Shown piece by piece: positions 9,515 through 43,335 of a stretch of 64,000 nucleotides of DNA (positions are counted from its first letter, which is position 1; every line of letters begins with the position of its first letter). Origin of the DNA: an uncultured virus (IMG/VR IMGVR_UViG_3300042463_000956) (Duplodnaviria; Heunggongvirae; Uroviricota; Caudoviricetes). The position numbers were made by a program, and so were the translations under genes. Location of the stretch: positions 1 to 64,000 of the IMG/VR virus record IMGVR_UViG_3300042463_000956. One strand, written 5' to 3'. The notes under the pieces are model-generated. The model searched no databases. It saw only the letters and a program-made list of their open reading frames with translations, and was not told the DNA's origin.

Positions 9515-9588
9515 GGTCCCGTAGCTCAGCTGGATAGAGCAACTGCCTTCTAAGCAGTAGGTCTTTGGTTCGAATCCAAACGGGATCA
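9515..9588 (+). tRNA. tRNA-Arg(TCT)
   Basis: Cloverleaf with acceptor GGTCCCG/CGGGATC, anticodon loop CT-TCT-AA, T loop TTCGAAT. Confidence 0.95.
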
Positions 9589-9683
9589 CTAAAAAAATAT
9601 TATGGAAGACATATTTGAACAAATACATAATGAATTTATAAATTCCGAAGATTATTTTTCATATCTTCAAGATATTTATTCTT

Positions 9684-10121
9684 ATGAAGAAAAAGATAAG
9701 ACTAACGGAATCTGAATTAATAAGACTTATTAAAAGGATTATTGAAGAAGAAAAGTACTCCGAAGAAGATATCAAGTACACCCACCCAATGACAGGTGAA
9801 GCCTGTAAAATCAAAGTTGCCAGAAATAAACTTACAAGTATGGAATTTAACCAATATGGGTCAATTCTTGTTTGTGTTGATGAAGAATATGGTGATGATA
9901 GAATTGAAGCTGAACTTCCAGTAAATGGAAGTACATCAGAAGAAGTTAGTGATTTTATATGTGAAAACTTAGAAAGGACATTTGAACTTTTAGATGATAT
10001 GTTAACTTACGAAGAAGAAGAACCAATATCAGAAGAAGTTTATAGTCAAAGGTGGGATATAATAGACCAACCAATTGTTTGTACAGACAAACCAAAAAAG
10101 AAAAAAAGTTGGGAATATTAA
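9684..10121 (+). CDS. Hypothetical protein with MKKKIRLTESELIRLIKRIIEE leader
   Basis: ORF preceded by GATATTTAT; conserved N-terminal motif. Confidence 0.75.
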   Translation: MKKKIRLTESELIRLIKRIIEEEKYSEEDIKYTHPMTGEACKIKVARNKLTSMEFNQYGSILVCVDEEYGDDRIEAELPVNGSTSEEVSDFICENLERTFELLDDMLTYEEEEPISEEVYSQRWDIIDQPIVCTDKPKKKKSWEY

Positions 10122-10152
10122 TAAAAACACTTGTTTATTAGAAAAAAATACC

Positions 10153-10160
10153 TATCTTTG
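10153..10160 (+). promoter_or_regulatory. Bacteroidota-type -7 promoter element TAnnTTTG. Others at 10907, 13661, 14093, 14846, 15758, 18430, 20070, 20293, 24025, 33417 and minus strand 51175-51182
   Basis: Recurrent TATCTTTG-type octamer just upstream of genes or tRNAs, usually with TTG/TTTG about 20 nt upstream. Confidence 0.75.
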
Positions 10161-10208
10161 TAACAGAAATTAAAACTTTTAGAAATAACGATATACTTAT
10201 AATAAAAA

Positions 10209-10316
10209 ATGAAAACAAATCTTAGACATATGGTCATTAGCAAGCAACCGAGCAATCAGTGGTCGTTCTGCTATAATACGCTTAAACCGTCTAGGGCATT
10301 TTCATTTATGAGTTAA
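10209..10316 (+). CDS. Leader peptide 1 (35 aa, MKTNLRHMVISKQPSNQWSFCYNTLKPSRAFSFMS) of a putative attenuator
   Basis: ATG after an A-rich RBS-like stretch and TATACTTATA; unusually many C/G-ending codons; stop codon lies inside a hairpin that competes with the downstream terminator. Confidence 0.75.
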   Translation: MKTNLRHMVISKQPSNQWSFCYNTLKPSRAFSFMS

Positions 10317-10346
10317 TAACGATTAACCAACATAATAAAGGAATAT

Positions 10347-10377
10347 AAGACCCAAGGCAACAAACCTTGGGTTTTTT
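10347..10377 (+). terminator. Intrinsic terminator of attenuator 1
   Basis: AAGACCCAAGG-caacaaa-CCTTGGGTTTT plus T tail, just upstream of tRNA-Thr. Confidence 0.85.
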
Positions 10378-10388
10378 GTTTTATACCT

Positions 10389-10460
10389 GCTCTGTAAGCA
10401 TTGATGGCGATGCGCTTGACTTGTAATCAAGAAAAATCAGTTCGAATCTGGTACGGAGCT
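10389..10460 (+). tRNA. tRNA-Thr(TGT)
   Basis: Acceptor GCTCTGT/ACGGAGC, loop CT-TGT-AA. Confidence 0.9.
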
Positions 10461-10471
10461 CAAAAGAAAAA

Positions 10472-10488
10472 GTTCTTTGACATATTGG
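10472..10488 (+). promoter_or_regulatory. boxA-like antitermination element GTTCTTTGA. Also at 13518, 14121, 20329 and minus strand 22911-22923
   Basis: The same 9-mer precedes tRNA runs, the long ncRNA and the tmRNA; resembles rrn boxA. Confidence 0.65.
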
Positions 10489-10496
10489 CCTTATAA

Positions 10497-10567
10497 TGTT
10501 CCCTCGTCTAATGGCAGGACACGCGGTTTTGGTCCGTGGAATCGAGGTTCGAGTCCTTGGGGAACAA
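10497..10567 (+). tRNA. tRNA-Gln(TTG)
   Basis: Acceptor TGTTCCC/GGGAACA, loop TT-TTG-GT. Confidence 0.9.
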
Positions 10568-10576
10568 CAATAAATT

Positions 10577-10665
10577 GGAAGTCTAATTTAGCCGGCGCTA
10601 AACCTAGTCTTGAAAACTAGTGGTACTGAAACACGTATGGGGATCGACACCTCAGGCTTCCTCCA
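10577..10665 (+). tRNA. tRNA-Ser(TGA)
   Basis: Loop CT-TGA-AA, long variable arm, encoded CCA. Confidence 0.85.
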
Positions 10666-10673
10666 AAAAATAA

Positions 10674-10744
10674 CGAGTGTGTGGTGTAATGGTTGCACAG
10701 GATGTTTGGGACATTCGGGAGACGTTCGATTCGTACACATTCGA
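10674..10744 (+). tRNA. tRNA-Pro(TGG), weak T stem
   Basis: GGATG-TT-TGG-GA-CATTC; acceptor CGAGTGT/ACATTCG. Confidence 0.75.
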
Positions 10745-10803
10745 CTAACAAATAAACAAATAAAAACAAGTGTTATGGAAAGTGACAAGTATGACAAACA
10801 AAA

Positions 10804-10876
10804 CCCCTCGTAGCTTAATCGGGAAAGCACCATACTTTTAATATGGGGAGAGTCGGATCGTAACCGGCCGGGGGGA
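10804..10876 (+). tRNA. tRNA-Lys(TTT)
   Basis: CCATA-CT-TTT-AA-TATGG; acceptor CCCCTCG/CGGGGGG. Confidence 0.85.
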
Positions 10877-10923
10877 CAAAAAATTTGGTAGATTAAAAAA
10901 AAGTATTATCTTTGTAAAAATAA

Positions 10924-11004
10924 GGAAGTGTTGAGCATTTGGCTGGCTCGCTTGACTGTAAATCAAGTCCGAAAGGCGTGTAGGTTCGACCCCTACCACT
11001 TCCA
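10924..11004 (+). tRNA. tRNA-Tyr(GTA)
   Basis: CTTGA-CT-GTA-AA-TCAAG with a variable arm. Confidence 0.9.
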
Positions 11005-11012
11005 CAACAAAA

Positions 11013-11087
11013 GGACAAGTAGCTCAGAGGCAGAGCAACGAGCTGTTAACTCGAAGGTCATAGGTTCGACCCCTATCTAGTCCGCCA
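11013..11087 (+). tRNA. tRNA-Asn(GTT)
   Basis: Loop CT-GTT-AA; GCCA 3' end. Confidence 0.9.
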
Positions 11088-11088
11088 A

Positions 11089-11189
11089 AGATACAATGTT
11101 GGGCTCCCCGTAGTGGTAACGTCTTAAGTAAGTAGACCACAAGAATCTAGTAAGAAGTGACAGATGGGTTCGTCACGACTAAAGTATCT
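11089..11189 (+). ncRNA. Unknown structured RNA in the tRNA array
   Basis: Closing stem AGATAC/GTATCT; internal stems GTCT/AGAC, TAGT/ACTA, GTGAC/GTCAC; GC-richer than the genome. Confidence 0.45.
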
Positions 11190-11193
11190 AATT

Positions 11194-11266
11194 GTTCACG
11201 TAGCTCAATTGGTAGAGCGCCGATCTGATACGTCGGAGGTAATGGGATCGTAACCCGTCGTGAACA
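11194..11266 (+). tRNA. tRNA-Ile(GAT)
   Basis: CCGAT-CT-GAT-AC-GTCGG; acceptor GTTCACG/CGTGAAC. Confidence 0.9.
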
Positions 11267-11270
11267 CTAC

Positions 11271-11354
11271 GGAAGATAAACCTTGATGGAGATAGGGTCC
11301 ACCTGCTAAGCGAGATGTACCTTCGGGTATTTGGCTCGATTCCAATATCTTCTT
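11271..11354 (+). tRNA. tRNA-Ser(GCT), divergent
   Basis: Acceptor GGAAGAT/ATCTTCT, loop CT-GCT-AA, variable arm TACC-TTCG-GGTA; anticodon stem has mismatches. Confidence 0.6.
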
Positions 11355-11360
11355 CAACTT

Positions 11361-11430
11361 GCCGATAGAAAAGGTTTTCGGTCCGGGCTCATATCCTGGA
11401 TGTCATTGGGTTCGATACCCTTTATCGGTA
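11361..11430 (+). tRNA. tRNA-Met/Ile2(CAT) with a reduced D arm
   Basis: CCGGG-CT-CAT-AT-CCTGG; acceptor GCCGATA/TATCGGT. Confidence 0.6.
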
Positions 11431-11437
11431 CTTATAT

Positions 11438-11511
11438 GGTGTATGTAGCTCAGTTGGTAGAGTGCTGGATTGTGATTCCAGAGGTCGTGGGATCGTGACC
11501 CATCATACACA
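11438..11511 (+). tRNA. tRNA-His(GTG)
   Basis: CTGGA-TT-GTG-AT-TCCAG; encoded G-1. Confidence 0.9.
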
Positions 11512-11517
11512 CAATAT

Positions 11518-11589
11518 ACCTTCGTAGCTTAATGGAAAAGCCTCAGAATACGAATCTGATGATTGGGAGTTCGACCCTCTCCGAAGGTA
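11518..11589 (+). tRNA. tRNA-Arg(ACG)
   Basis: TCAGA-AT-ACG-AA-TCTGA; acceptor ACCTTCG/CGAAGGT. Confidence 0.85.
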
Positions 11590-11590
11590 C

Positions 11591-11755
11591 AAAAGATGAT
11601 AAAAGGCGTAGAACAACGGACACGGAGAGGTGTTCGCAAGGGTGCAAACTAAGGATAGGTATTCAATCTTAATTGTATTGATGTAATAACCCGACTCTCT
11701 AATGGTGTGTGAAGTATAATTACGGGATTCCTGATAAAGTTGTTCATCATCTTTT
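11591..11755 (+). ncRNA. Unknown ~165-nt structured RNA
   Basis: Terminal stem AAAAGATGAT/ATCATCTTTT, inner GAACAAC/GTTGTTC, hairpin GGACAC/GTGTTC; no convincing ORF. Confidence 0.5.
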
Positions 11756-11759
11756 ATTT

Positions 11760-11831
11760 GCCCCTTTCGTATAATGGAAGTACAACACTCTTCTAAGGTG
11801 TCAGGTCGGAGTTCGAGTCTCTGAGGGGGTA
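11760..11831 (+). tRNA. tRNA-Arg(TCT), second copy with a different body
   Basis: ACACT-CT-TCT-AA-GGTGT; acceptor GCCCCTT/AGGGGGT. Confidence 0.8.
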
Positions 11832-11869
11832 CGGATCCGATGTCGGTCCCGAGCTAGGTCGGGCAATTT

Positions 11870-11940
11870 ACGTGGTACAGACAGGGCGTCGGGCAGGTCT
11901 CCAAAACCTCGCCGGGTAGGTTCGATCCCTACACCACGTG
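11870..11940 (+). tRNA. tRNA-Trp(CCA), atypical D arm
   Basis: AGGT-CT-CCA-AA-ACCT; acceptor ACGTGGT/ACCACGT; G73. Confidence 0.75.
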
Positions 11941-11949
11941 CTAAAATAA

Positions 11950-12022
11950 GGACAGGTAGCTCAGTTGGTAGAGCTCAGGATTGAAGATCCTGGAGTCGGG
12001 GGTTCGACACCCTCCCTGTCCA
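11950..12022 (+). tRNA. tRNA-Phe(GAA)
   Basis: CAGGA-TT-GAA-GA-TCCTG. Confidence 0.92.
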
Positions 12023-12044
12023 CAAACAATTAAAATTAACTAAA

Positions 12045-12500
12045 ATGAACAGAGTTTTTAGAACGGTTAATGGTGTTGCAATACCAGATGTGGTTAATCA
12101 CACTTTGGGTGTTCTAAAAGAATGTCCCTGGGTGGAAGTCCACATTGGGACTGACTCACAAAACCACAGAAGATCAACCGTGTATGTTACGGTGATAGCG
12201 TATAGGTATGGAAATAGAGGTGTTCATTATATTCTTCACAAACAAAAAGTGAAAAAAATAAAAGATAAATGGACACGTCTTTGGAATGAGGCCGATTATT
12301 CAATTGAGGTTGCCGAATGGTTAACCCAGAAAGTAAAAGTAAAAGTTGAAATTGACTTGGACTTTAATAGTGATGAAAAACATTTCAGTTCAAAACTGGT
12401 TCAACCAGCTGTTGGGTGGGCGACATCCTTGGGGTATAAAACAAATATAAAACCCCATAATCAAATTGCAACAAAAGCGGCAGATTACCACTGCCGTTAA
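12045..12500 (+). CDS. RNase H-like YkuK/DUF458 family protein
   Basis: Motifs HIGTDSQ, RLWNEA..SIEVA, IDLD, IKP...IAT..AD. Confidence 0.75.
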   Translation: MNRVFRTVNGVAIPDVVNHTLGVLKECPWVEVHIGTDSQNHRRSTVYVTVIAYRYGNRGVHYILHKQKVKKIKDKWTRLWNEADYSIEVAEWLTQKVKVKVEIDLDFNSDEKHFSSKLVQPAVGWATSLGYKTNIKPHNQIATKAADYHCR

Positions 12501-12507
12501 TATATTA

Positions 12508-12578
12508 GCTCAGGTGGCCGAGGGGTTAGGCACCGGTCTGCAAAACCGAGTACGGGGGTTCAAATCCCTCCTTGAGCT
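12508..12578 (+). tRNA. tRNA-Cys(GCA)
   Basis: Loop CT-GCA-AA; U73. Confidence 0.9.
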
Positions 12579-12587
12579 CAACAAAAT

Positions 12588-12667
12588 GCCCCTGTGATGG
12601 AATGCAGACATGCTGGTTTTAGACACCAGTGCCGAAGGGTGTGAGAGTTCAAGTCTCTCCGGGGGTA
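12588..12667 (+). tRNA. tRNA-Leu(TAG)
   Basis: CTGGT-TT-TAG-AC-ACCAG with a variable arm. Confidence 0.9.
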
Positions 12668-12706
12668 CAAAACTTATTATCAATATATTTATATTAAAAT
12701 GTTGAT

Positions 12707-13045
12707 ATGAAAAAAATTATAAGACTAACAGAATCAGATTTAGCTCGTATTGTTAAACGAGTAATCCAGGAAGGAAATATTGAAAAATCATCAAAGGAAA
12801 AAGACCTTGATGTTAAGATGGAAAATTTCCGAGATAAAATAAAAGATTTTTTAAAATCTAAAGATTGTAAAGTAAAACAAGTTGGAACCGATTTTGAGGT
12901 TCATTGTGATGGAGAACACGTAGGTCAAGTTATGTTTAGAAGAAATGCTATTACAGTAAAAAAAGAAGGTAGTAGGTTTGGAAAAGATTTTAAATTTAAC
13001 GAAATGGGTGATATTAAAGCTGAATTATCAAAAATGTTAAAATGA
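12707..13045 (+). CDS. Hypothetical protein with MKKIIRLTESDLARIVKRVIQE leader
   Basis: ORF after ATATTTATA; leader DNA shares 44 identical nt with the next gene. Confidence 0.8.
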   Translation: MKKIIRLTESDLARIVKRVIQEGNIEKSSKEKDLDVKMENFRDKIKDFLKSKDCKVKQVGTDFEVHCDGEHVGQVMFRRNAITVKKEGSRFGKDFKFNEMGDIKAELSKMLK

Positions 13046-13326
13046 AAAAAGTAATCAGACTAACAGAATCAGATTTAGCTCGTATTGTTAAACGAGTAAT
13101 TCGGGAAAACGAAGAAAACAAATTTGACTTCTATATGGAAGAACTAGGTGAATTTGCAAATAAACTTGATTGGGAAGGTCTTGATATTGAAAGTGAGGAA
13201 ATGGAATATTTTGTTGATGACATATATCAGATAGTTTATGACGCAAAACAAGATGATACTTTATCTAAAGACGAAATTTCTCACATTGAAGGATTTGCTA
13301 TGGGTATTGTTAGTAGATTAGATTAA
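13042..13326 (+). CDS. Acidic hypothetical protein with MKKVIRLTESDLARIVKRVIRE leader
   Basis: ATGA overlap with the previous gene; shared leader. Confidence 0.8.
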   Translation: MKKVIRLTESDLARIVKRVIRENEENKFDFYMEELGEFANKLDWEGLDIESEEMEYFVDDIYQIVYDAKQDDTLSKDEISHIEGFAMGIVSRLD

Positions 13327-13393
13327 AAAATTAAATAAAACTTGACACTTTTAAAATTATTAGTATATTTATAAAAAAATTAAAAAACCGCAA

Positions 13394-13462
13394 ATGAAAA
13401 ATTTACACATATCATTGATAGGAGGCGATTTAGCTGAGGATTCTTTCAAGGAGAGGGTGTAA
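13394..13462 (+). CDS. Leader peptide 2 (22 aa, MKNLHISLIGGDLAEDSFKERV) of a putative attenuator
   Basis: Follows TATATTTATA; its 3' end GAGAGGG (13451-13457) is complementary to the terminator arm CCCTCTC (13491-13497). Confidence 0.75.
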   Translation: MKNLHISLIGGDLAEDSFKERV

Positions 13463-13486
13463 TATTTTATACATATAAAAATTTTG

Positions 13487-13517
13487 AAGCCCCTCTCTAA
13501 AAAAGAGGGGTTTTTTT
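13487..13517 (+). terminator. Intrinsic terminator of attenuator 2
   Basis: AAGCCCCTCT-ctaaaaa-AGAGGGGTTT with a T7 tail, followed by boxA and tRNA-Leu(TAA). Confidence 0.85.
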
Positions 13518-13542
13518 GTTCTTTGAAATATTGGTGAATAAT

Positions 13543-13625
13543 GGTCCGATGTTGGAATTGGTATACAAGACAGACTTAAAATCTGTTACCCATTGGGTGT
13601 GAGGGTTCAAGTCCCTCTCGGACTA
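13543..13625 (+). tRNA. tRNA-Leu(TAA)
   Basis: ACAGA-CT-TAA-AA-TCTGT with a variable arm. Confidence 0.92.
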
Positions 13626-13672
13626 CAAAAAATAAATTTGGTAGATTAAAAAATTATTTATACTTTTGTTTT

Positions 13673-13978
13673 ATGATAACATTTAAGGATATAGAGTTTA
13701 GACAACATAATGCTGGTGAAGGATCACAAGGGTTGATTTTTTTTCCTGGTGGATACGGACTTTCTGTTGTTAGATTTAAACATCCTTATAGTACCAGATA
13801 TTCGTCTTACACAGATGATAAAACCTGGGAGGTTGCAATTTTAAAAGGAACAAAAAATCATTGGGATATCTGTTATGATACAGAACTAACAAATGATGTT
13901 TTGACTTTCCAAACAGAAGAAGATATAAATAAAATAATTAAACACGTTCAAAGACTATATAACGATGAAAACAATTGA
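13673..13978 (+). CDS. Phage hypothetical protein (F..GYG.SV..WEVAIL pattern)
   Basis: 101-aa ORF behind a TAnnTTTG promoter. Confidence 0.7.
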   Translation: MITFKDIEFRQHNAGEGSQGLIFFPGGYGLSVVRFKHPYSTRYSSYTDDKTWEVAILKGTKNHWDICYDTELTNDVLTFQTEEDINKIIKHVQRLYNDENN

Positions 13979-14081
13979 GATTACATATCAGGAGATTAAG
14001 ATGGCAACAAGACCAAATGTGTATCGTAATAAAAAAAAATACACAAGAAAAGAAAAGTTTAAAAAAGATTTGGTAGATTGA
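13965..14081 (+). CDS. Small basic protein, ArfA-like motif (38 aa, MKTIEITYQEIKMATRPNVYRNKKKYTRKEKFKKDLVD)
   Basis: Not in the ORF track; overlaps the previous stop; KKKYTRKEK resembles the ArfA K.K.SY.RK.KH region. Confidence 0.45.
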   Translation: MKTIEITYQEIKMATRPNVYRNKKKYTRKEKFKKDLVD

Positions 14082-14142
14082 AATAAAATACATATCTTTG
14101 TAAAACAAATAAGGAAAAGGGTTCTTTGAAATATTAAAAATA

Positions 14143-14224
14143 AAAATCACGGGTGGCTCCCTTAATAGTTAAGGCTGACCTTAAGCATCTGACGTATGTC
14201 TATACAGGGGGTGAAAGTGATTTT
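14143..14224 (+). ncRNA. Unknown ~80-nt structured RNA
   Basis: Closing stem AAAATCAC/GTGATTTT and hairpin CCTTAA/TTAAGG; lies right after a promoter and boxA. Confidence 0.45.
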
Positions 14225-14231
14225 AAAATAT

Positions 14232-14322
14232 TGTGGTTGTAAGAAACGGGAAACTCGTAAAGTGTATCAACCTGTTAAATCAAGATAGTGAAACGAGAGT
14301 TTGATTTAACTACTGAACTACA
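14232..14322 (+). ncRNA. Unknown ~90-nt structured RNA
   Basis: Closing stem TGTGGTT/AACTACA; hairpins ACGGG/CTCGT and GTTAAATCAA/TTGATTTAAC. Confidence 0.45.
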
Positions 14323-14328
14323 AAAAAC

Positions 14329-14438
14329 AGTCAAGTGGCGGAATTGGTAGACGCTGGGAGATAATACTCAAAACTCCTTGGGGTAAGGTGATTTTCACAT
14401 TTATCTCGTGATAGGTTCGAATCCTTCTTTGACTACCA
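14329..14438 (+). tRNA. Atypical tRNA-Leu-like RNA (possible CAA anticodon) with an expanded anticodon/variable region
   Basis: Leu-type D arm GCGGAATTGGTAGACGC, acceptor AGTCAAG/TTTGACT, ACCA end; CTCAAAA loop displaced by an insertion. Confidence 0.5.
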
Positions 14439-14441
14439 TAT

Positions 14442-14513
14442 TGCGGGGTAGAGCAGTGGTAGCTCGGCGGGCTCATAACCCGTAGGTCGCAGGTTCGAAT
14501 CCTGCCCCCGCAA
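14442..14513 (+). tRNA. Initiator tRNA-fMet(CAT)
   Basis: GGG/CCC anticodon stem, loop CT-CAT-AA, TGCGGGG 5' end. Confidence 0.9.
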
Positions 14514-14520
14514 CTAAAAT

Positions 14521-14601
14521 GCTGACGTACCAGTGGATGCTTATATCATCTATGCCTGTAGTGGTAAGTTTAAAACGTTGGTTCGAATCCAACCGTCAGT
14601 A
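14521..14601 (+). tRNA. D-armless tRNA-like RNA with TAT (Ile, AUA-reading) anticodon
   Basis: Acceptor GCTGACG/CGTCAGT, GGATG-CT-TAT-AT-CATCT, perfect T arm GTTGG-TTCGAAT-CCAAC; only 7 nt where the D arm should be. Confidence 0.55.
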
Positions 14602-14607
14602 CAATAA

Positions 14608-14680
14608 GCGGAAGTAGCTCAATTGGTAGAGCTCCTGCCTTCCAAGCAGGTGGTTGAGGGTTCGAGTCCCTTCTTCCGCT
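14608..14680 (+). tRNA. tRNA-Gly(TCC)
   Basis: CCTGC-CT-TCC-AA-GCAGG. Confidence 0.95.
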
Positions 14681-14870
14681 CAAAAAATAAACGAGTAAAA
14701 AGAATAAATGATGGAAAATATGGTTTTATCAGGAACTTCAGAATCATCAAAAGTTAAATTTGTTAAGACTAATTTTAAATCTGATTTTGCAAAAACATTA
14801 AAGAAAAAACTTAAAAAAAGATTTGGTAGATTAAAATAAACTAACTATCTTTGTAAAACCAAATTAAAAC

Positions 14871-14942
14871 GGTCTGTTCGACAAGGGGTTAAGTCGTCGC
14901 CCTTTCACGGCGAAGTCACGGGTTCGAATCCCGTACAGACTA
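14871..14942 (+). tRNA. tRNA-Glu(TTC)
   Basis: TCGCC-CT-TTC-AC-GGCGA. Confidence 0.95.
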
Positions 14943-14951
14943 CAAAATTTT

Positions 14952-15027
14952 GGCTCTATGGTTGAATGGCTACAATACCGCCCTGTCACGGCGTGTGGTA
15001 CGGGTTCGAATCCCGTTAGAGCCGCCA
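14952..15027 (+). tRNA. tRNA-Asp(GTC)
   Basis: CGCC-CT-GTC-AC-GGCG; GCCA end. Confidence 0.9.
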
Positions 15028-20348: not shown

Positions 20349-21190
20349 TCCGTTCAGGAGTAAGTAATGAAACTGATAAAGATATTGGGCCGTGTATAGT
20401 CCATAAAATAAACTGGGAAACCAGGATAAAGTGAATCATTTGTGTAAGTGGTTTGCGGTTTAGGTAACTAAACTTGAGTACACAAGCGGGATACCGTTTA
20501 ACCTTTAGTACCGAGGGCAACGCTGTAGGGAAAGTGGTTAAGTGATTGGGCGATGTGGGTCGTCTAGTTGAGGTGGGAACACCAATAGGAATAACTCGTA
20601 GGAATATTGCAAAAAATAGAATTATCCGATTTTATCATTGCGTGTTCCAGTATCATAGGAAACTTAAAACCGAAAGGTATGTTGATGTACAGGTGGTGCT
20701 GTTATTAACCTTGATTCGACCCCACCAAGGGTTAAATCTCGAAGTAGTCTTGAAATATTGAGATGGGGACATTTCACAGAGTAGTTGAGTATCGATTCGT
20801 TCAAAAGATGGGTTGGCTCGGTTGACAGACCACTACTTTGATAATCCACAACACAAATACTTTATGGAAAGTAATAAAACTAAATTATTAACTACAAAAA
20901 GGAAAAGTGTCTGTCAGGTTTGGATGAAAGGTGACTACATAGTAATGAGCCGTTCATTGCACACAAGGATCCCAAGTCTAAGTGTAATTATCCGAAAAAC
21001 CTTTAGTCCCGCAAGGACGAACTGGGGAGGCATCCTCGGAAAGAGTCAAGTAAGATGAGAGTAATTCAAACCTCAAGGAGTGGTAAACCTAAAAGACCGT
21101 CACTGAGAAATACTTTCCAAAAGAAAGTGGATAAGAGTAGAATAAATAATGACTCTAAAGGTTCTCAATAACAGGTGTAATCTCAGCCTT
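20349..21190 (+). ncRNA. Large (~840 nt) noncoding RNA, GOLLD-like
   Basis: GC-richer stretch without a credible ORF, with many GNRA-type hairpins, its own promoter (20293), boxA (20329) and terminator (21226-21253). Size and tRNA-cluster context fit GOLLD. Ends are approximate. Confidence 0.6.
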
Positions 21191-22460: not shown

Positions 22461-22517
22461 TAATTAGGATATCTCCTAAAAAAGAAAACCCACTTCAAAA
22501 GAGTGGGTTTTTTAATT
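22459..22517 (+). repeat. 59-bp direct repeat copy 2, abutting the tmRNA 3' end
   Basis: Identical to 21990-22048; AAAACCCACT/AGTGGGTTTT bidirectional terminator. Confidence 0.9.
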
Positions 22518-22907
22518 GGTGGAGGTGGAGGGACTCGAACCCTCGTCCATAATATCCTGTCAGATAAGGACTACACGTTTAGGTTGGTATTTTCTAATAC
22601 CCCAAAATATTTGATTTGTTCTTCACCATCGTAAATCAACAACCAATGGTCCCGAATCGGATTTAGAGAGCCATCCGGTGTGCTCTATCAAACTACGACT
22701 TCTGTTGCTAGGTTATATGTCTGCCGACCCCCCGTTTCCGTAAACTTCTTAAGCTACAGTAACTTCAGAACCTCTTACTAATCCAAGAGTTTCCATTTTG
22801 TTTAGCACATTGCCAGTTGTTTTCTAAGTCAGTTTTTAAAGAGATTAACTCAGTCCCTACGTGCCCTTATTCCTCAGCCGATACCTGTCAAATCCAAAAA
22901 CACCCCC
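22517..22907 (-). ncRNA. ssrA: tmRNA; tag reading frame 22814..22749 encodes (A)GNVLNKMETLGLVRGSEVTVA
   Basis: 5' GGGGGUG pairs with 3' CACCUCC-ACCA including G3:U70; GGAUUUGAC D-loop mimic; T arm GAGGG-UUCGAGU-CCCUC; 391 nt. Confidence 0.92.
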
Positions 22908-43215: not shown

Positions 43216-43335
43216 AAACTTAAAAAATATTTTTTACAAAAAGGGAGTAACATTAGTTATTCCCTTTTTTTATTATCTAAAATTAAACTTTTTCAAAAAC
43301 CAATGTATTTATTTGAATAAAGTCAAAAAATAAAA

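Follow-up and report, generated by a model that had tools for sequence, protein, structure and literature searches.

A putative leader-peptide attenuator ahead of a tRNA gene block in an uncultured phage

The stretch of DNA analyzed here, referred to as the window, comprises 64,000 nucleotides of an uncultured lake virus of the Caudoviricetes (IMG/VR record IMGVR_UViG_3300042463_000956) and represents the first 64 kb of a viral contig of 78.5 kb, estimated to be 26% complete. The complete relatives of this phage have genomes of 257-304 kb, and these sizes, together with a promoter motif of the Bacteroidetes type, indicate that it is a jumbo phage with a host most likely among the Bacteroidota. 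Nineteen transfer RNA (tRNA) genes were called within positions 9515-15027, all on the plus strand. At 10131-10382, a promoter-like site is followed by a short, presumably translated open reading frame (ORF) with a maintained frame and by an intrinsic terminator, the latter lying directly ahead of tRNA-Thr with no promoter motif in between. The sequence and its conservation suggest that this segment is probably a leader-peptide (ribosome-mediated) transcription attenuator heading a block of Thr, Gln, Ser, Pro and Lys tRNA genes. Its components are the following:

10131-10160, plus strand: Bacteroidota-type promoter-like site, with TTG at 10131-10133, a spacer of 19 nucleotides and TATCTTTG at 10153-10160, from which a transcription start just downstream is deduced
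10207-10215, plus strand: 5' strand of helix P0 (AAAUGAAAA), start codon included, with its partner at 10299-10307
10209-10316, plus strand: leader ORF of 35 codons plus TAA (MKTNLRHMVISKQPSNQWSFCYNTLKPSRAFSFMS), with an A-rich start context
10220-10227, plus strand: segment 1 (UCUUAGAC), the alternative partner of segment 2 (helix P1)
10249-10265, plus strand: small conserved hairpin inside the ORF, joining codon 14 (CCG) with codon 19 (TCG); RNAalifold columns 55-60/66-71
10289-10296, plus strand: segment 2 (GUCUAGGG), the 5' strand of the putative antiterminator
10299-10307, plus strand: 3' strand of helix P0 (UUUUCAUUU), within codons 31-33
10312-10327, plus strand: hairpin H across the stop codon, GUUAAU-AACG-AUUAAC
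10328-10346, plus strand: A-rich variable linker holding CATAA at 10331-10335, with 15 of 19 columns varying and gap runs of 1-3 nucleotides
10347-10382, plus strand: intrinsic terminator, stem 10347-10357/10365-10375 followed by a T-run; the core of its 5' arm, 10351-10358, is segment 3
10389-10461, plus strand: tRNA-Thr(UGU), first gene behind the terminator, 13 nucleotides past the stem
10497-10568, plus strand: tRNA-Gln(UUG), in the same block, before the next promoter motif at 10884
10577-10661, plus strand: tRNA-Ser(UGA)-like gene with a long variable arm and UGA in the anticodon loop
10674-10745, plus strand: tRNA-Pro(UGG), in the same block
10804-10877, plus strand: tRNA-Lys(UUU), last of the block before the promoter motif at 10884

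Relatives of the leader were collected by scanning viral and metagenome contigs, which yielded 132 loci with the small ORF, many of them the same contigs fetched repeatedly; the 118 loci that extend at least 200 nucleotides past the ATG collapse into 57 distinct DNA variants, and these 57 sequences form 56 distinct rows in the alignment of the leader region. Most loci were found through an N-terminal peptide pattern, which by itself accounts for part of the invariance of codons 1-8; in one relative, the peptide begins with MKNT. One candidate from a gapped pattern scan (L027) was an unrelated chance match and was excluded from all alignments. A DNA similarity search of a phage collection with the window returned matches of tRNA size only, a wider profile of the leader peptide brought zero new loci in viral contigs, and none of the 59 candidate stretches retrieved from 185,579 bacterial and archaeal species genomes was confirmed, giving no clue to the host. 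No relative of the leader was found away from tRNA arrays in these searches.

Similarity among the relatives begins at the -33 element near 10130; 5' of this point, different lineages have unrelated DNA and different neighbors of the module. At the other end, tRNA-Thr(UGU) is called 10-15 nucleotides past the T-run in 53 of the 57 variants, the other four comprising three that are ended by contig ends and one with an uncalled tRNA-like sequence. The promoter motif TAnnTTTG occurs in none of the 57 spacers between terminator and tRNA-Thr. The genes behind the terminator are themselves diverse, with 32 distinct tRNA sequences and at least three very different forms of tRNA-Thr. The conserved span and the strict adjacency to tRNA-Thr therefore delimit a unit composed of promoter, small ORF, terminator and tRNA block.

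The reading frame is open in all 57 variants, with a length of 35 or 36 codons and a stop codon, TAA or TGA, fixed in place. Three distinct indels were found within the ORF, each of 3 nucleotides, and 13 distinct gap runs of 1, 2 or 3 nucleotides in the 3' non-coding part. The constraint on the amino acids is moderate, with a ratio of non-synonymous to synonymous polymorphism (pN/pS) of 0.62 over 752 pairs, and of the 35 columns for each codon position, 16 vary at the first, 16 at the second and 20 at the third. The residues M1, K2, T3, H7, M8, P14, W18, F20, Y22, T24 and S35 are invariant in 28 diverse leader peptides, much of this invariance being at the nucleotide level, synonymous sites included. 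An invariably maintained frame whose sequence is partly free to change would be expected of a regulatory ORF, and is compatible with a functional peptide as well. As to the start context, Bacteroidetes are described in the excerpted text of PMC6847099 as favoring A-rich contexts, without Shine-Dalgarno sequences.

The alignment provides covariation for the terminator and for hairpin H. The terminator has 96.8% of its cells paired, with double changes at four pairs (14, 4, 21 and 26 rows), and its hairpin energy ranges from -13.0 to -21.7 kcal/mol over the 57 variants (-15.1 kcal/mol in the window for 10345-10382 folded alone). Hairpin H, whose 5' arm includes the TAA of the leader (10314-10316), has 98.2% of its cells paired, and its loop-closing pair 10317/10322, located outside the ORF, is UA in 37 and AU in 14 of the 56 rows. 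Helix P0 is likewise paired in 98.2% of the cells with zero double changes; it is predicted by RNAalifold, and since it is invariant its conservation says nothing either way. The small hairpin at 10249-10265 shows no covariation because its columns are almost invariant. Helix P1 has 79.2% of its cells paired and a GC to AU double change in 13 rows. The RNAalifold consensus consists of P0, the small hairpin, H and the terminator, and the fold of the whole leader has a z score of -4.62. In the minimum free energy (MFE) structure of the full-length leader of the window, P0 (10207-10215/10299-10307) and P1 (10220-10227/10289-10296) coexist with the terminator, segment 2 being thus paired with segment 1.

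The original prediction, made from the letters of the window, had proposed a long imperfect hairpin across the leader stop codon, with GTTAAT (10312-10317) and ATTAAC (10322-10327) closing an AACG loop (10318-10321), extended by TTATG (10306-10310) and CATAA (10331-10335), and with 10289-10296 paired to the 5' arm of the terminator. All these stretches lie at the positions given, and the hairpin over the stop codon is real: the MFE structure of 10285-10362 folded alone is exactly the proposed one (-13.6 kcal/mol, z -2.94, 2 of 200 shuffles equal or better; -10.8 kcal/mol for the proposed pairs alone), and hairpin H covaries. The extension by TTATG and CATAA is correctly placed and present in the MFE structure, but it is paired in only 80.5% of the cells and lacks real covariation, the departures at four of its five pairs being unpaired cells only. 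Covariation in homologs, which had been suggested as a check, is thus found for the terminator and hairpin H, is missing from this extension, and is mixed for the antiterminator, with double changes at three pairs and only partial conservation.

The putative antiterminator pairs GTCTAGGG (10289-10296) with CCCAAGGC (10351-10358) through 7 of 8 positions, including one G-U pair, with an A-A mismatch at 10293/10354. It has 84.7% of its cells paired in the alignment, its GGG/CCC core is invariant, and double changes are found at three of its outer pairs (GC in 8 rows, UA in 11, CG in 1). Codon 10293-95 is AGG in 48 variants and GGG, CGG or TGG in 3 variants each, so that the amino acid is R, G or W and GG is constant; moreover, GGG 10294-96 is the sole GGG upstream of the terminator in 54 of the 57 variants. 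The fixation of GG while the amino acid of this codon changes and the uniqueness of GGG both favor an RNA-level constraint acting on GGG 10294-10296. When segment 2 and the terminator arm were swapped among variants, the native pairs had a mean energy of -9.16 kcal/mol versus -8.67 kcal/mol for non-native ones, with 12 of 5000 permutations as good, in statistics that ignore the relatedness of the variants.

The effect of the ribosome was modeled by folding the RNA truncated before the 3' arm of the terminator with a ribosome footprint blocked, at equilibrium, a treatment that ignores kinetics and the bulk of the ribosome. In the window, the probability of the antiterminator is 0.03 with no ribosome (P1 reaching 0.93), 0.86 with a ribosome at codon 6, 0.03 at codon 16 and 0.10 at the stop; the corresponding medians over the 57 variants are 0.10, 0.75, 0.40 and 0.37. 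The switch proposed by the original prediction, in which a ribosome reaching the stop would melt the hairpin and one stalled in codons 3-24 would leave the antiterminator intact, is therefore reproduced by the model for the window, but in a non-uniform manner across the family. The range of codons 3-24 is too broad under the window model, as a footprint at codon 16 leaves the antiterminator at 0.03.

In the mechanism that these elements suggest, transcription would start a few bases past 10160, and the 35-codon leader would be loaded with a ribosome at its A-rich start. During synthesis of 10347-10382 by the polymerase, the 5' arm of the terminator (10351-10358) would have two alternative partners: its pairing with segment 2 (10289-10296), in a helix held by the stop-codon hairpin (10312-10327), would let the polymerase run on into tRNA-Thr, and its pairing with its own 3' arm (10365-10375) would end transcription. 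A fast ribosome would pass 10289-10296 and sit on the stop-codon hairpin, allowing the terminator to form; a ribosome held up at an earlier position of the leader would leave the antiterminator free. With no ribosome, P0 (start region/10299-10307) and P1 (10220-10227/10289-10296) would favor termination in the window sequence. The net result would probably be that slow decoding leads to more phage tRNA.

A second module of similar organization is present in the tRNA array of the window:

13342-13626, plus strand: promoter-like site at 13342-13369, ORF at 13394-13462 (MKNLHISLIGGDLAEDSFKERV), terminator at 13486-13514 and tRNA-Leu(UAA) at 13543-13626

Its ORF is kept in three relatives, in one of them with in-frame insertions. 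Modules of the same design with unrelated leaders were also found in LR745206, a phage of 634 kb whose similarity to the window is tRNA-sized only; the genomes of more than 634 kb, LR745206 among them, are assigned in the excerpted text of PMC7162821 to Bacteroidetes-infecting Mahaphages. One fixed finder, applied to the window and to 48 kb each of LR745206 and LR756502, returned a discovery set of six modules with a terminator followed by a tRNA gene, all six with a small ORF, in five families located before tRNA-Thr, Leu, His, Arg and Ile. Because the codon test on this set was post hoc, the identical code was run on the unseen tRNA clusters of both 630-640 kb phages as a validation set, which gave seven modules, again all with a small ORF.

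Overall, a small ORF precedes 13 of 13 terminator-then-tRNA modules versus 29 of 71 other terminator-like hairpins (Fisher p 4e-5), and the encoded peptide starts with MK or MT in 12 of the 13 versus 8 of the 71. The upstream 124 nucleotides are complementary to the terminator 5' arm with a shuffle p < 0.1 in 6 of the 13 tRNA-linked modules and in 10 of the 71 others (Mann-Whitney p 0.0009); as modules of related phages are not independent, such p-values should be taken only as indications. In four other modules folded as truncated RNAs, the terminator 5' arm pairs with the 3' end of the ORF or with the stop region around an apical hairpin, and the pairing between the 5' arm and the ORF end is kept with different sequences in both Gln modules. 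Pairing of the start-codon region with a region at or near the 3' end of the ORF or just past the stop was observed in the window and, among the four other folded modules, in two (L161 and the Pro/Asp module of L162); in these models it may represent a "closed" state common to several leaders, which could restrict the loading of successive ribosomes. One of the control small ORFs with a leader-like appearance (43238-43269) was found to be an out-of-frame piece ending a 71-codon gene with an ordinary terminator. Two small ORFs starting with MK, in L151 (18611-18639, MKNIRLNDDRFLLTNCKADW) and L152 (25731-25756, MKTLHTYKNVIDWM), are followed by terminator-like hairpins behind which no tRNA was called, and could represent either leaders of uncalled RNA genes or chance occurrences.

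The codons of the leaders were compared with those read by the first tRNA downstream (test A) or by the run of tRNAs with gaps up to 120 nucleotides (test B), against the codon usage in long ORFs of the same phage. The five families of the discovery set gave Fisher p-values of 0.0035 (A) and 1.1e-4 (B), and only 2 (A) and 1 (B) of the 120 permutations of leaders and tRNAs matched as well. The four new families of the validation set, which come from one phage and include a miss, gave 7e-8 (A) and 1.4e-9 (B), or 0.021 (A) and 5.6e-4 (B) once the Gln leader was removed (n=3). The clearest case is the leader MTTTQQIQQQQINQTD of LR745206, located before tRNA-Gln, with 7 Gln codons out of 15 (p 4.7e-8). 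The validation set also includes a homologue of the Ile leader and the leader MTTSFQQQQQQQINRTD, located before four tRNA-Gln genes. In front of a run of Asn, Arg, Leu, Val, Ile and Thr tRNAs lies a leader with abundant Asn, Leu, Thr, Val and Ile, in which 26 of 37 codons match versus 36.5% expected (p 3e-5). Of two leaders rich in Pro, Asp and Gln before Pro/Asp runs, one is significant and one is not. The single miss of the validation set precedes tRNA-Met (L164): its small ORF ends 8 nucleotides before the stem and contains 0 cognate codons, and it was kept in the counts although it may not be a leader.

For the leader of the window, a post hoc count showed that 5 of the 9 Thr, Gln, Ser(UCN) and Pro codons end in G, versus 5.8% in the long ORFs of the phage (p 1e-4). 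Four of these codons, CCG14, CAG17, TCG19 and ACG24, are kept in 57, 50, 55 and 55 of the 57 variants and match one-to-one the downstream U34 tRNAs Pro(UGG), Gln(UUG), Ser(UGA)-like and Thr(UGU). A possible mirroring of the Thr/Gln/Ser/Pro/Lys block by the composition of the leader was also considered and was not significant (11 of 34 codons versus 22.4% expected, p 0.12).

Given the open frame in all 57 variants, the covariation of the terminator and of hairpin H, the fixed GGG and the 12 sister modules of like design, the core of the attenuator reading appears likely, the comparative data being its strongest support; the regulation of read-through, the exact helix and the stall codons are putative. 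Several results nevertheless weigh against it. The antiterminator is only partly upheld: beyond the invariant GGG/CCC, its other four (outer) pairs are each broken in 12-17 of the 56 rows, neither this helix nor P1 appears in the RNAalifold prediction, and two pairs of the TTATG/CATAA extension are broken in 16-18 of the 56 rows. It is also weaker (-5.8 to -10.8 kcal/mol) than the terminator (-15 to -19 kcal/mol). A partner equal to 10289-10296 for the arm core 10349-10359 arises in 131 of 1000 dinucleotide shuffles of 10209-10346, so that for the window alone pairing is not distinctive and the case must rest on the comparison with relatives. For the window, the automated survey ranked 10258-10270 above segment 2 as partner of the long 5' arm (shuffle p 0.449), segment 2 being the best partner when the core arm is used. 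The dependence on the ribosome is not general: in many variants (e.g. L033, L020, L129, L073 and L104) the antiterminator forms regardless of whether a ribosome is placed, and in L025 it is nearly absent (0.06).

The codon data raise further points of this kind. In the pre-set tests, the window leader is not enriched in cognate codons, either for Thr ACR (2 of 34, p 0.39) or for the tRNA run (14 of 34, p 0.31). Its rare-codon signal was defined after the data were seen, and two of the rare codons are part of the small conserved hairpin, so that they may be conserved for the sake of RNA structure instead. In the discovery set, the codon pattern was noticed before the tests were written, and the non-independence of the modules reduces the weight of the class statistics. 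In two of the three relatives of the Leu module (L147 and L148), an insert of about 60 nucleotides bearing a promoter parts the leader terminator from tRNA-Leu; the window and L146 are without it. The coupling between leader and tRNA can therefore be lost. The pN/pS of 0.62 and the several invariant residues leave room for a functional peptide. Among four RNA runs, represented as contigs by small shares, 10140-10384 is uncovered in the three true metatranscriptomes, and the run with the best coverage is probably DNA; this result is uninformative either way.

Among the other explanations, the locus could be an ordinary small gene with a functional 35-residue peptide, in which the hairpin acts as a leaky terminator or a 3' stabilizer and the tRNAs are expressed by constitutive read-through, an option which we regard as unlikely. 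It would account for the 11 invariant residues in 28 diverse peptides with a pN/pS below 1 and for the absence of cognate codon enrichment in the pre-set tests of the window leader, and the analogous Leu module followed by its own promoter in two of three relatives indicates that such units can stand alone. Conversely, the invariance is largely at the nucleotide level, synonymous sites included, NGG is kept through R, G and W, and a pN/pS of 0.62 represents a weak constraint for a functional peptide. A simple small gene also fits poorly with tRNA-Thr lying 10-15 nucleotides past the T-run in 53 of 57 variants behind a promoter-free spacer, with the lack of any relative outside tRNA arrays or in the 185,579 species genomes searched, or with sister leaders such as that of tRNA-Gln in LR745206, which are sensible only as codon sensors. 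A structured non-coding leader or small RNA with an incidental frame, whose terminator a phage or host antitermination factor would overcome or which would serve the processing or stability of the tRNA precursor, appears quite improbable: the strong nucleotide conservation, the RNAalifold consensus with its four elements, the z score of -4.62 and the near-equal numbers of variable columns at the three codon positions (16, 16 and 20 of 35) would be expected from it, but not the open frame in 57 of 57 variants, the three ORF indels all in multiples of 3, the exchange of TAA and TGA in place, the A-rich start, or the MK/MT small ORFs in 12 of 13 tRNA-linked modules versus 8 of 71 controls, and the leader gave zero matches to Rfam families.

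Stalling by the nascent chain, of which tnaC-type control is an example, offers another way to link a conserved peptide to the terminator. An arrest-peptide sensor of this type would use the conserved residues (HM, QW.F, Y.T and ..FSFMS) to stall the ribosome at or near the stop upon a ligand or state, in line with the conserved N- and C-terminal blocks, the latter ending exactly at the stop, and with the location of the stop inside a conserved hairpin. We consider it highly improbable for this locus, as the C-terminal block doubles as the 3' strand of P0 and is conserved at synonymous sites, the peptides of the sister modules are unrelated in spite of a common architecture and codon matching, and in the window model the antiterminator is less probable when a ribosome is parked on the stop codon than when one is at codon 6, which would result in termination and not in induction.

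Only part of the tRNA blocks of the phage sit behind attenuator-like modules, since others have a promoter motif alone: near-identical motifs (TTTGGTAGATT ... TA(nn)TTTG) at 10884-10914, 13637-13668, 14069-14100 and 14822-14853 lie directly before tRNA genes with no leader ORF and no terminator. The strict motif TTTG-N17-21-TANNTTTG, corresponding to the Bacteroidetes promoter consensus (TTTG ... TANNTTTG) quoted in the excerpted text of PMC6847099, occurs 13 times in the window versus 5.8 expected; the site at 10131-10160 does not fit this strict pattern. A spacer motif, GTTCTTTGA(A/C)ATATT(GG), was observed at 10472-10488, 13518-13534 and 14121-14135, shortly 5' of tRNA genes with or without an upstream promoter motif, and relatives also keep it in the interval from tRNA-Thr to tRNA-Gln; it could serve as a signal for processing or as a 5'-leader signal. 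The Ser-like gene at 10577-10661 was missed by ARAGORN and by the Rfam tRNA model at its gathering score, and scores 41.2 bits on the Rfam tRNA-Sec model (cut-off 47, E 1.6e-7); in relatives, a tRNA-Ser(tga) is called in the same block, between tRNA-Thr and tRNA-Gln. Three ORFs among the tRNA genes (9684-10121, 12707-13045 and 13042-13326, all on the plus strand) have in common the N-terminal motif MKK.IRLTES(D/E)L.R(I/L)(V/I)KR(V/I)I. In one close relative (L004, 3436-4404), an insertion of about 970 nucleotides lies between the upstream 145-codon gene and the leader promoter, and L006-L009 contain the upstream gene but did not match the leader query. The window further contains, a few kb past the tRNA array, a full-length GOLLD RNA (20777-21189, plus strand, 313.8 bits) and a transfer-messenger RNA gene (22517-22907, minus strand, 111.9 bits).

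The set of modules leads us to a broader proposal, which may equally well hold or fail: Bacteroidota jumbo phages would place tRNA blocks under leader-peptide attenuators spelled in the codons of those tRNAs, each block being made on demand when decoding is slow, and the Thr-block leader of the window would be a multivalent member probing the tRNA supply via the rare codons CCG, CAG, UCG and ACG. Such a demand could arise, for example, from a mismatched tRNA pool of the host early in infection, or from the cutting or depletion of tRNAs by host defenses. To the question of why phages carry tRNA genes and when they use them, a decoding-coupled sensor, if true, would give a direct and testable answer at the level of regulation. 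Classical attenuation, so far a matter of enzymes, would then reach the translation apparatus itself, with a product that relieves its own inducing signal, and the codons that a phage treats as limiting could be read from sequence alone. As the leaders are short, modular and portable, they could easily be tested with reporters in Flavobacterium or in cell-free systems.

Attenuation is known for amino-acid genes; for tRNA genes, no publication on control by leader peptides was found by a full-text literature search, with subscription journals outside its coverage, and the terms attenuat-, leader (peptide) and terminator are all absent from PMC7162821 and PMC11025619. The Rfam leader families (e.g. 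Thr_leader) and the T-box family had no match at gathering scores in the whole window, nor at E-values up to 10 in 10100-10480, and the permissive Rfam matches over the leader are far below threshold and terminator-like in appearance. A close case in the presumed host phylum is provided by the amino-acid operons of Flavobacterium psychrophilum, for which clues to leader-peptide attenuation are reported in the excerpted text of PMC9723704; the phylum and the mechanism class being the same, coupled attenuation is plausible there. These operons are chromosomal and concern amino acids, and tRNA genes and phages are unmentioned in that excerpt. In the erm/vmlR-type attenuators of antibiotic resistance, a ribosome stalled in a short upstream ORF likewise remodels the downstream RNA and permits expression, but these systems respond to a ribosome-bound antibiotic in a manner dependent on the nascent peptide, whereas the sister modules described here point to codons and tRNA supply. 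T-box riboswitches also sense the charging or supply of tRNA and choose between an antiterminator and a terminator before translation-related genes; they bind the tRNA directly with no translated ORF, unlike the window leader with its conserved frame. Close counterparts are also the leader-peptide attenuators of amino-acid biosynthesis operons (trp, his, leu, thr, ilv, pheA). Compared with them, the putative phage element would regulate tRNAs and not enzymes, so that the sensed molecule would be the product itself, and it is carried by a phage whose presumed host phylum is without Shine-Dalgarno sequences according to the excerpted text of PMC6847099; its leader in the window has no codon run and only single rare G-ending codons for four downstream tRNAs, recognized post hoc. 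With these attenuators it shares the same order of promoter, short ORF, predicted overlapping alternative helices, intrinsic terminator and putatively regulated genes, the predicted 1:2, 2:3 and 3:4 arrangement of segments in the window and, in the sister modules, runs of codons for the regulated species, as with the 7 Gln codons out of 15 before tRNA-Gln.

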